From Patescibacteria group bacterium (GTDB taxonomy: Bacteria > Patescibacteriota > Minisyncoccia > 2-02-FULL-40-12 > IGHO2-01-FULL-4-A): a DNA stretch of 64,000 nt. Below the pieces are notes generated by a model, which saw only the letters and a list, made by a program, of their open reading frames with translations, did not search any database and was not told the DNA's origin. Location: assembly GCA_038064015.1 (NCBI GenBank), contig JBBTUB010000025.1, forward strand, positions 4,632-68,631, read 5' to 3'. The stretch's first letter is position 1, and every line of letters begins with the position of its first letter. The position numbers and the translations under genes are program-made. Shown piece after piece: positions 40,981 through 42,561 of this stretch.

Positions 40981-41016
40981 CCTGCTATGCTGATCCTGGA
41001 ATAGCGAGACTCGATA
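40981..41016 (+). repeat. Repeat copy 1 of the motif CTGGAATAGCGAGA-N-TCG-N-TA, preceded by CCTGCTAT
   Basis: cctgctatgctgatcCTGGAATAGCGAGActcgata. Partner at 42527..42561. Confidence 0.45.
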
Positions 41017-41051
41017 CGCTTACGAAGATTAAGAAATCAAGCTAAAAAGAA

Positions 41052-41447
41052 ATGAAACTTTTTCTGGATATTGATGGAGTCATAGTAGGTAGAGGCAGGA
41101 AGCCAGCCGCGTATGTTACGGAGTTCCTTAAGTTTGCTACGGATAGACATGACTGTTATTGGGCTACTACTCATTGCAAGGGAGAAGATACCGATGACGT
41201 CATGAGGTATATTAAAGAAATCTTGCCAGCAGAAGCGGCTCTATACTGTGAAAAGATAAAGCCTACAAGGTGGTCGCATAAGAAGACTGAAATCTTCGAT
41301 TATAATTCCGATTTTCTTTGGTTTGAGGATAAGCCATTTGAATTCGAAAAAGAGATTTTAGCTCAACATGGTAGATCGAATAGCCTTGTGCTGGTTGATT
41401 TAATATCTAACCCAAATCATCTGCATGATTTGATCAAATTACTATGA
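41052..41447 (+). CDS. HAD-superfamily phosphatase-like protein
   Basis: N-terminal LFLDIDGVIV is the DxDG motif I. Confidence 0.55.
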   Translation: MKLFLDIDGVIVGRGRKPAAYVTEFLKFATDRHDCYWATTHCKGEDTDDVMRYIKEILPAEAALYCEKIKPTRWSHKKTEIFDYNSDFLWFEDKPFEFEKEILAQHGRSNSLVLVDLISNPNHLHDLIKLL

Positions 41448-41938
41448 AAAATCAAGATTTGCGATTTAAGATGTATCTGACCGCGACCTACTTTCTGAAA
41501 AGTAAAGTGAGCAAAGCGAAGGTGTCGCTTATAGAACAGCATGGGGATTACAAGAAAGGAAGCTGGGGCTTGGCGAATAAAAAGTTGCCCAAGATTTACA
41601 TTCTCAAGGAGGGAAAGGAGATATTATATGTGGGCATAACAAAAAGACCATTGAGCGAGCGTTTTAGGTATGGGCTTACCGCCTCTGGGAAGAATGGCTA
41701 TCATGGATACGCATGGAAGGCGTTGGCGCGAAAGGTTCAATCTGGTCCGATTGATCTGTTCGTATATGTATTCAATAGCGAGGAAAGAACCGAAGTAATC
41801 GAGGCGGAAGTGGTTTATCTCATTAGGAACAAGACGGGCAAATGGCCTCGATACCAGACAGAAATCCATTTCCACCATGACGCAGACAGAAAAGAGCAAG
41901 GGATAGCCCGTAGGATTTATGAGCAGGTGTCGCGTTGA
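41444..41938 (+). CDS. GIY-YIG-like nuclease-domain protein
   Basis: KIYILKEGKEILYVGITKRPLSERFRYG...EAEVVYLIRN. ATGA overlap with the HAD gene. Confidence 0.45.
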   Translation: MKNQDLRFKMYLTATYFLKSKVSKAKVSLIEQHGDYKKGSWGLANKKLPKIYILKEGKEILYVGITKRPLSERFRYGLTASGKNGYHGYAWKALARKVQSGPIDLFVYVFNSEERTEVIEAEVVYLIRNKTGKWPRYQTEIHFHHDADRKEQGIARRIYEQVSR

Positions 41939-41981
41939 TGAGTTGTTTTTGTTTATCCCGAAATTGTGGTAGTTTTGAGGC

Positions 41982-42512
41982 ATGAATAATCTCGGTGTCA
42001 TAAAGCAAAGCGATATTTTCCCAGAATTGCCTGATATGGAAGTTGAGAAAGGGCAACGAGGCGGTACAAGAAAAGCCGCTCGCGCCGTGCTTTTTGATTC
42101 AGATGGAAACGTTGGCCTACTCCATGTCGCCAATAAGCATTACTACAAACTTCCAGGGGGTGGCATTGATGGGAATGAGGAAGTGATTGAAGCTCTCAAG
42201 CGCGAATGTAGAGAAGAAATAGGATGCGAGATTGAAGTTTTTGGTGAAGTTGGAGAAATCACCGAGCATAGAAACAAAATAGACCTCGTACAAACATCAT
42301 ACTGTTATCTTGCAAATGTTGTTGGTCCCAAGGGCGAGCCTCACCTTGAAGAGGACGAGCGAGAAGCTGGATTTACTGAAATGTGGGTAGGGATTGATGA
42401 AGCCATAGAGCTTGTAAGAAACAGCGAGCCGACAACATACGATGGAGCGTTCATTATTGTCAGAGATTTGAAGTTTTTGAAAAAGGCAAAGGCACTCGGG
42501 AAAGAATTGTGA
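41982..42512 (+). CDS. NUDIX hydrolase
   Basis: The Nudix box GGGIDGNEEVIEALKRECREEIGCEI matches Gx5Ex7REUxEExGU. Confidence 0.85.
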   Translation: MNNLGVIKQSDIFPELPDMEVEKGQRGGTRKAARAVLFDSDGNVGLLHVANKHYYKLPGGGIDGNEEVIEALKRECREEIGCEIEVFGEVGEITEHRNKIDLVQTSYCYLANVVGPKGEPHLEEDEREAGFTEMWVGIDEAIELVRNSEPTTYDGAFIIVRDLKFLKKAKALGKEL

Positions 42513-42526
42513 TTTGCACCCTCACT

Positions 42527-42561
42527 GTGCTATTCTTTTTCTGGAATAGCGAGAGTCGGTA
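42527..42561 (+). repeat. Repeat copy 2: gctattc-tttttctg-gaatagc hairpin, then CTGGAATAGCGAGAgtcggta
   Basis: Shares 19 of 21 positions with 40996..41016 and overlaps the 5' end of the rnpB candidate. Confidence 0.45.

Follow-up and report, generated by a model that had tools for sequence, protein, structure and literature searches.

A 64,000-nt stretch of DNA from a member of the Patescibacteria (assembly GCA_038064015.1, contig JBBTUB010000025.1, positions 4,632 to 68,631; hereafter the window) contains three closely packed genes, encoding a HAD-fold phosphatase (gene 1), a GIY-YIG nuclease (gene 2), and a Nudix hydrolase (gene 3), followed on the same strand by the gene for a conserved structured small RNA (sRNA). 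Parts of the sRNA gene occur a second time, in front of gene 1 and at the end of gene 2, and on balance we favor the reading that these two genes occupy the shell of a second copy of the sRNA gene, which has lost its body. The Nudix gene lies between this gutted copy and the intact one. A preliminary description of the locus had proposed that the three genes might form a functional module or be the cargo of an element inserted site-specifically into or next to a candidate RNase P RNA gene; its observations on the sequence were largely right, but its mechanistic reading was largely wrong.

Repeats R5 and R3

The first of two repeats, R5, extends over 34 nt in register (40983–41016 and 42528–42561), of which 28 are identical (repeat finder, family D7). 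It includes the motif noted in the preliminary description, an exact 14-mer, CTGGAATAGCGAGA, which indeed occurs only twice in the window, at 40996 and 42541; the degenerate 20-mer TGGAATAGCGAGASTCGRTA likewise finds two matches there, versus none in 100 shuffles. In the downstream copy, R5b (42528–42561, + strand), the native extended −10 box TGcTATTCT is followed by a 6-nt spacer, a GG start at 42543, and the 5′ end of the sRNA. The upstream copy, R5a (40983–41016, + strand), shows the same order, with an extended −10 box (TGcTATGCT), a 6-nt spacer (GATCCT), and a GG start at 40998, leading into the first ~20 nt of the sRNA. A promoter scan places a −35-like hexamer, TTGAAA, at 40962–40967 (+ strand), separated by an 18-nt spacer from the TATGCT hexamer, which is preceded by TG. 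This geometry, TGnTATnnT followed by 6 nt and GG, is common to R5a, the native gene, and two metagenomic homologues of the sRNA on contigs L087 (TGtTATAAT) and L088 (TGaTATATT). Because these homologues have the same promoter geometry, we read R5 as the predicted promoter, start site, and first ~20 nt of the neighboring sRNA gene.

The gctat(tc) segment preceding each copy had earlier been taken for a hairpin arm that pairs with the motif; it is the extended −10 box, and the hairpins are weak. That of copy 1 folds no better than shuffled sequences (z = +0.68), and that of copy 2 is marginal (z = −1.9, equaled in 10 of 200 shuffles). The complementarity between the −10 box and the 5′ strand of the RNA is mostly a by-product of TAT adjoining AUAG, and it is absent in L087 and L088. 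We also rejected the proposal that copy 1 is a fusion of the 3′ and 5′ ends of the RNA, as in a permuted RNA: beyond the TGCTAT of the −10 box, just two extra bases match.

The second repeat, R3, derives from the other end of the sRNA gene. A terminator scan identified an intrinsic terminator with a 12-bp stem followed by a T tract at 42753–42786 (+ strand), within which R3b occupies 42766–42786. R3a (41936–41956, + strand), which starts at the stop codon of gene 2, is a copy of the loop and 3′ half of this terminator; R3a, TGATGAGTTGTTTTTGTTTAT, and R3b, TGATGGGTTGTTTTTGTTTAT, are identical at 20 of 21 positions. The R3 motif matches twice in the window and not once in 100 shuffles, even with three mismatches allowed. 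When the RNA gene region was compared with the whole window using BLAST, the R3 21-mer and the 14-mer core were the two best non-self matches, R3a ranking first; the R3 and R5 matches to the RNA gene are collinear, on the same strand, and less than 1 kb apart. Neither repeat has a third copy in the window. Along the DNA, the order is thus R5a, gene 1, gene 2, R3a, the Nudix gene, R5b, the RNA, and R3b. Since R3a is located at the stop codon of gene 2, only genes 1 and 2 are framed by the two fragments, and the Nudix gene is not.

Origin of the arrangement

Three events would account for this anatomy. A second copy of the sRNA gene would have existed upstream of the Nudix gene; its body of ~200 nt would have been replaced by genes 1 and 2 through illegitimate recombination at the level of microhomology, the right-hand junction at the gene 2 stop codon sharing TGA; and the two genes would now probably be transcribed from an sRNA-type promoter, with a start near 40998. 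The leader of the gene 1–2 transcript would then begin like the sRNA.

Several points weigh against this reconstruction. It describes a single instance, the L087 and L088 RNAs being without such partial duplicates, and no genome was recovered that carries two intact RNA copies or an empty site. The 14 identical nt could just as well be the core of a recombination site. Look-ups of the exact proteins yielded contigs identical to the window and otherwise only Logan contigs, with breaks at 42571, 42545, and 42630; one of the Logan contigs, L086, carries a strain variant of the RNA (see below). The first of these positions is a contig end in two runs, from two samples, and other contigs start at the latter two. 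A contig end at 42571 places the start of the last 31-mer at 42541, implying variation in the population from that base onward. Finally, in the putative R5a promoter the −10 hexamer TATGCT, like the native TATTCT, matches the consensus at only four of six positions, and promoters of Patescibacteria are poorly characterized.

The preliminary description had accounted for the R5 repeats by integration: a 1.5-kb three-gene element would have been acquired by site-specific insertion at the RNA gene's 5′ end, making R5a and R5b its attL and attR with the crossover in the 14-nt core. Direct repeats with an exact core of that length do flank 41017–42527, tyrosine and serine recombinases are encoded in the island at whose edge the locus is found, the entire 29–42.5 kb stretch is low in GC, and the assembly graph of two samples has a branch where the core begins on its left. 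That branch, however, is at 42541, whereas a deletion between R5a and R5b predicts 42540. There is no recombinase between the repeats, the nearest being 9–12 kb away (29002–32232), and no third motif copy at the left end of the island; a search for another att-like repeat between 28.5–35.7 kb and 40.25–42.95 kb gave only chance matches of 11–16 nt. Furthermore, the supposed element would contain R3a, which comes from the terminator of the RNA gene, the Nudix gene is of a housekeeping type, and the three genes never travel together (see below). We consider such an integration improbable. Still less probable, in our judgment, is that R5a and R3a are independent look-alikes unrelated to the RNA gene, a strong promoter and a T-rich terminator tail having converged on consensus. 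It is true that TGnTAT fits any extended −10 box, that TTTTTGTTT tails are also found after the L087 and L088 RNAs, and that the GCTAT/GAATAGC complementarity largely follows from a −10 box adjoining a P1 strand that contains AUAG. The identity of R5, however, runs 12 nt into the transcribed region (GGAATAGCGAGA) and is followed by TCG-N-TA, R3 contains the non-generic TGATG(A/G)GTTG, neither motif occurs elsewhere in the 64 kb even with three mismatches allowed, and the two repeats are collinear and adjacent.

A gutted gene copy would also be compatible with regulatory mimicry, in which the leader keeps the first 20 nt of the sRNA for recognition by the same protein or nuclease or, alternatively, pairs with the 3′ strand of the sRNA, GCUAUUCC; either way, the sRNA and the expression of the cassette would be linked. 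The core has kept all 14 nt, whereas flanking positions of the repeat have diverged, and the GGAAUAGC of the leader is complementary to the 3′ end of the sRNA. Yet there is one instance without comparative support, and the pairing, of only 8–9 bp, has to compete with the helix that closes the sRNA itself, so that we assign mimicry a low probability.

Among known arrangements, islands at tRNA and tmRNA genes with a displaced partial gene copy are the closest in kind: there, too, a stable-RNA gene borders a variable island that contains recombinase genes, and the island has, inside it or at its edge, a short direct repeat that stems from the RNA gene. In contrast to those islands, the repeat in the present locus comes from the promoter and 5′ end, not from the 3′ end, two separate remnants (5′ end and terminator) frame only two genes, and there is neither an adjacent integrase nor a copy at the far end of the island.

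The structured sRNA

The sRNA gene (42543–42750, + strand) spans 208 nt and is closed by a helix between GGAAUAGC and GCUAUUCC; the fold with this closing helix has a z-score of −2.6. Scanning metagenomes with a 20-mer from the RNA yielded two true homologues, L087:1038–1192 (155 nt) and L088:461–726 (266 nt), and one chance match (L089). All three RNAs start with GG(A/G)AUAG, end with GCUAUUCC followed by an intrinsic terminator, and have the extended −10 box and 6-nt spacer at the same distance upstream. They share a nearly invariant core of ~80 nt, with a variable insert before the 3′ closing strand. RNAalifold predicts 51 pairs, 5 of which, all in one hairpin, show changes on both sides. 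A strain variant, L086 (Logan ERR3858114_103593), carries six substitutions, all within 42575–42614; the rest of the RNA (~150 nt) and 250 nt of downstream sequence are unchanged. Three of the six affect loops or unpaired positions and three are exchanges between G·U and G–C in predicted helices; the changes in this strain are thus compatible with the predicted structure. The preliminary description had tied the repeated motif to an adjacent structured-RNA gene; this derivation is supported, and the two homologues and the strain variant indicate that the gene is real. Judging from its conservation, its covariation, and its predicted own promoter and terminator, the sRNA is real, and it likely represents a family not yet in Rfam.

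No Rfam family matched the sRNA at either gathering or E-value thresholds when the window, the 2.2-kb region, the RNA alone, and L087 were searched; for the RNA alone, this holds up to E = 10. An nhmmer search with a profile of the RNA core over 226 comparison loci found no further members, nor did it detect copy 1 as a homologue. Scans of viral contigs gave no matches to a 19-mer and only chance matches to a 15-mer, and our literature search returned nothing specific on a Patescibacteria RNA of this kind. A helix GCUCAU/AUGAGU, suggested by an apparent compensatory change in L086, was rejected; it is absent in L087 and L088, where a different hairpin covaries.

L087 and L088 lack synteny with the window, and the surroundings of the sRNA homologues are as follows. 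On L088, the sRNA homologue is followed (823–2525) by genes for an NYN-domain protein, a PRiA4_ORF3-like protein, and a classical GIY-YIG protein (PF01541, E = 1e-17); the sRNA gene therefore borders accessory nuclease-type genes in a second lineage too. The L087 contig is 1.6 kb long and without a convincing open reading frame (ORF). It carries a LOOT RNA at 137–251 (− strand; 77.8 bits), ~790 nt from the sRNA homologue and the second of its kind after one in the window (see below), so that LOOT is present on two of the three contigs carrying the sRNA. The paper describing LOOT RNA does not take it up in its main text.

Comparison with RNase P RNA

The preliminary description had taken copy 2 of the motif for the 5′ P1 strand of a candidate RNase P RNA, a label that is not supported. 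Neither RF00010, RF00011, nor related RNase P families match the 2.2-kb region, the RNA alone, or L087 at E ≤ 10, and no RNase P family matches anywhere in the window at E ≤ 5. This negative result does not settle the question, because some RNase P RNAs from the candidate phyla radiation (CPR) score only about 5 bits: in 10 of 35 circular CPR genomes, RNase P RNA was detectable only at that level (Lui et al., PMC8172020). A search of E. coli genomes with the sRNA using BLAST returned nothing. The best local alignment to E. coli rnpB covers the J11/12–P12 module, with 22 of 26 positions identical; its score was reached by none of 300 shuffles for the window RNA, by 1 of 300 for L087, and by 11 of 300 for L088. 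A chained collinear alignment to rnpB is not significant, its score being reached by 11–23 of 200 shuffles.

Structural comparison gives a similarly mixed picture. As in the diverged CPR RNase P RNAs (PMC8172020), the ends of the sRNA pair in a closing helix. A helix resembling P4, AGUCCG/UGGCUU with a bulged U, can form as rAG(U)CCG/UGGCUU in all four sequences, one of its positions being variously GU, AU, or GC. Two alternative helices that exclude each other fit equally well, the competitors being GAGUCGG/CUGGCUU and UCGGUA/UACCGA. In contrast to RNase P RNA, the sRNA lacks the core topology P1-P2-P3-P4…P2′-P4′-P1′, there being no P2 partner upstream of the P4-like 3′ strand; P5, P15, P18, and the P2/P4 pseudoknot order are missing; and the P4-like 3′ strand is separated by an extra hairpin and a variable domain from the 3′ strand of the closing helix. 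The RNAs are also only 155–266 nt long, the smallest member having 155 nt. Reduced RNase P RNAs are known from mitochondria. With its closing helix, a P3-like hairpin, the P4-like helix, and a J11/12–P12-like module, the sRNA might be an extremely reduced RNase P RNA, which we regard as improbable.

The three protein-coding genes

As the preliminary description had it, three packed ORFs span 41052–42512 with one ATGA overlap, and its fold assignments (HAD, GIY-YIG, and Nudix) agree with the conserved motifs, structure models, and Pfam matches.

Gene 1 (41052–41447, + strand) encodes a protein of 131 residues that matches no model in Pfam (E ≤ 1), NCBIfam (E ≤ 0.1), PHROG, or PADLOC, and for which a profile search of the PDB returned nothing relevant. 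Its family comprises 34 homologues; in an alignment of 31 sequences, Asp6, Asp8, Thr39, Thr40, Lys78, and Asp93 are invariant, and all four HAD catalytic motifs (DxD nucleophile, T/S, K, and acidic) are present. The AlphaFold2 model has a pLDDT (predicted local distance difference test) score of 94, and the best Foldseek matches are the HAD phosphatases SCP1, SCP2, and SCP3, with probabilities of 0.97–1.0 and template modeling scores of 0.55–0.61 (for SCP1, a probability of 1.0 and a score of ~0.57), yet with E-values of only 7e-3 or weaker. Together, the invariant motifs and the model indicate a capless HAD-fold phosphatase of a family restricted to Patescibacteria. The protein resembles capless C0 HAD phosphatases such as the C-terminal-domain phosphatases SCP1/FCP and the phosphatase domain of T4 polynucleotide kinase in its DxDG(V) nucleophile, its conserved Thr, Lys, and Asp, and its Rossmannoid core without a cap. 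Unlike these, it has only 131 residues, is found in Patescibacteria only, and matches no Pfam or NCBIfam model.

Gene 2 (41444–41938, + strand), which overlaps gene 1 by ATGA, encodes a predicted stand-alone GIY-YIG nuclease of 164 residues. Its Pfam PF01541 score of 18.6 bits is below the gathering score of 22.6, and two homologues in its family of 27 have a precomputed match to PF01541. The GIY-x(9–11)-YIG motif and the conserved Arg and Glu are retained, and the AlphaFold2 model (pLDDT 90) shows an N-terminal β-hairpin followed by the core; taken together, the evidence for a GIY-YIG fold is good. In contrast to other stand-alone GIY-YIG nucleases, such as the free-standing homing endonucleases T4 Seg/Mob and I-TevI and the restriction enzymes Hpy188I and Eco29kI, to which it displays no detectable sequence similarity beyond the motif, the protein has no DNA-binding domain of the I-TevI type, nor does a cognate methyltransferase consistently adjoin its gene.

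Gene 3 (41982–42512, + strand) encodes a Nudix hydrolase of 176 residues, with a match to Pfam NUDIX (PF00293) of 52.1 bits (cut-off 21.1; E = 8.9e-14) and an intact Nudix box, GX5EX7REUXEEXGU, reading GGIDGNEEVIEALKRECREEIGC. It has at least 691 homologues at E ≤ 1e-10, mostly 50–57% identical, and belongs to a large Nudix family of housekeeping type in Patescibacteria. The L226 and L230 homologues are found among genes for methyltransferases, pyrophosphatase, trigger factor, ClpP, ribosomal protein L19, and RNase T.

Are the three genes a unit?

The contexts of the homologues differ from gene to gene. Homologues of gene 1 occur right after a 1002-residue ResIII helicase with RelA_SpoT upstream (L095, 1218–4677; 82% identity), between a serine recombinase and an OLD-family nuclease (L099, 6625–10762; 64%), and right after the exonuclease VII genes xseA/xseB, with an overlapping start (L103, 6291–8396; 76%), which suggests a substrate among nucleic-acid ends. 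Homologues of gene 2 have as neighbors an NgoBV-type restriction enzyme, methyltransferases, recombinases, and an OLD-family nuclease (L090; 90% identity), lie in a region with genes of the type II secretion system type (L091; 77%), or stand directly downstream of SMODS/AGS_C nucleotidyltransferase and SLATT_4 genes (L093; 69%). This last pair, which resembles a cyclic-oligonucleotide-based antiphage signaling system (CBASS), is found upstream of a gene 2 homologue at 6062–8498 of L093 and at 3873–6309 of L094. Because the L093 homologue adjoins it, the comparison suggests that the gene 2 family may have an accessory or effector function in conflict systems.

When all three proteins were searched against the homologue loci using tblastn, no two of the genes were neighbors in any of eight independent contexts, within ±6–8 kb; the preliminary description had itself listed such a result among those that would refute its proposal. 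DNA homology between the window and L090 (88.5%) runs exactly from the start codon to the stop codon of gene 2, and no sequence resembling R5 or R3 was found in the flanks of homologues elsewhere. Because the homology to L090 is limited to the ORF, gene 2 moves between genomes as a single-gene unit, and the three ORFs are, by these comparisons, independent genes of different histories rather than a co-evolving system.

The preliminary description had raised the possibility that the phosphatase, nuclease, and Nudix hydrolase act jointly as an undescribed anti-phage or nucleotide-surveillance system. The tight packing with the ATGA overlap of genes 1 and 2, the nucleotides and nucleic acids that are typical substrates of all three folds, and the frequent occurrence of gene 1 and gene 2 homologues in defense or mobile islands (OLD nucleases, restriction–modification, SMODS with SLATT) would fit such a role, as would a weak PADLOC match of gene 3 to the candidate family PDC-S07. 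The lack of co-occurrence in all eight contexts, the confinement of gene 2 homology to its ORF, the absence of any PADLOC match for genes 1 and 2, and the size and housekeeping settings of the gene 3 family speak against it. As a conserved system, the trio is already refuted by these genomic comparisons, and we hold any joint action of the three to be very unlikely indeed.

Locus setting

The three-gene locus forms the right-hand end of a variable island, ~13 kb long, that abuts the conserved sRNA gene. GC is low to the left of the locus (0.39–0.47) and 0.48–0.54 in the flanks, the low-GC stretch spanning 29–42.5 kb. The island begins with a serine recombinase (29002–30630) and a tyrosine integrase (31015–32232), followed by helix-turn-helix (HTH) genes and two unknown proteins. 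A LOOT RNA (35367–35492, + strand; Rfam RF03000, 53.4 bits) lies between an HTH gene and a Type III-like methyltransferase, after which come a ResIII protein and two small ORFs. Housekeeping genes flank the island, YchF on the left and MurC on the right. The placement of the locus at the edge of an island with recombinases and restriction–modification genes, already given in the preliminary description, is supported by the low GC, both recombinases, the methyltransferase, and the ResIII protein. An island protein of 390 residues (33888–35060, − strand) is without a Pfam domain and matches PHROG 37634 (function unknown) over its full length (E = 9e-14), a hint that part of the island has phage-related ancestry.

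The longest ORF for MurC (42938–44848, − strand) comprises 636 residues, including a 150-residue N-terminal extension; public assemblies record a protein of 486 residues whose start is at 44398. The extension is probably not translated; it overlaps the divergent region upstream of a phosphoglucomutase gene. Among species-level genome representatives, the best identity of this MurC is 48%, and its nearest relatives are metagenome-assembled genomes of Saccharibacteria, Moraniibacteriota, and Yanofskybacteria. Because the flanking MurC is only 48% identical at best, the source organism appears to be a deep-branching member of the CPR to which no sequenced genome in the collection is closely related. 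A scan of the genome representatives with MurC provided no syntenic comparison, the contig of the best relative stopping at MurC. Positions 34435–48659 of the window are identical to the ENA contig Hain_H51_01um_R2_850 from Hainich groundwater.

Implications

The combination of phosphatase, nuclease, and Nudix hydrolase is not to be pursued as a defense module. The 131-residue capless HAD and the 164-residue GIY-YIG proteins instead represent CPR-restricted families that recur singly in defense and mobile islands, and to judge from these contexts they may be stand-alone conflict genes. The most interesting remaining item is the unclassified sRNA. Without an Rfam family and bounded by a promoter and a terminator, it merits a family-wide covariation analysis, and since some CPR genomes appear to be without detectable RNase P RNA, a small RNA resembling RNase P RNA is of interest there. 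On the most far-reaching reading, its class would be new in Patescibacteria, and its gene would be a recombination hot spot at which inserted accessory genes are expressed from the sRNA promoter. Protein genes inside the shell of an sRNA gene would point to a route by which accessory genes in tiny CPR genomes acquire expression signals.

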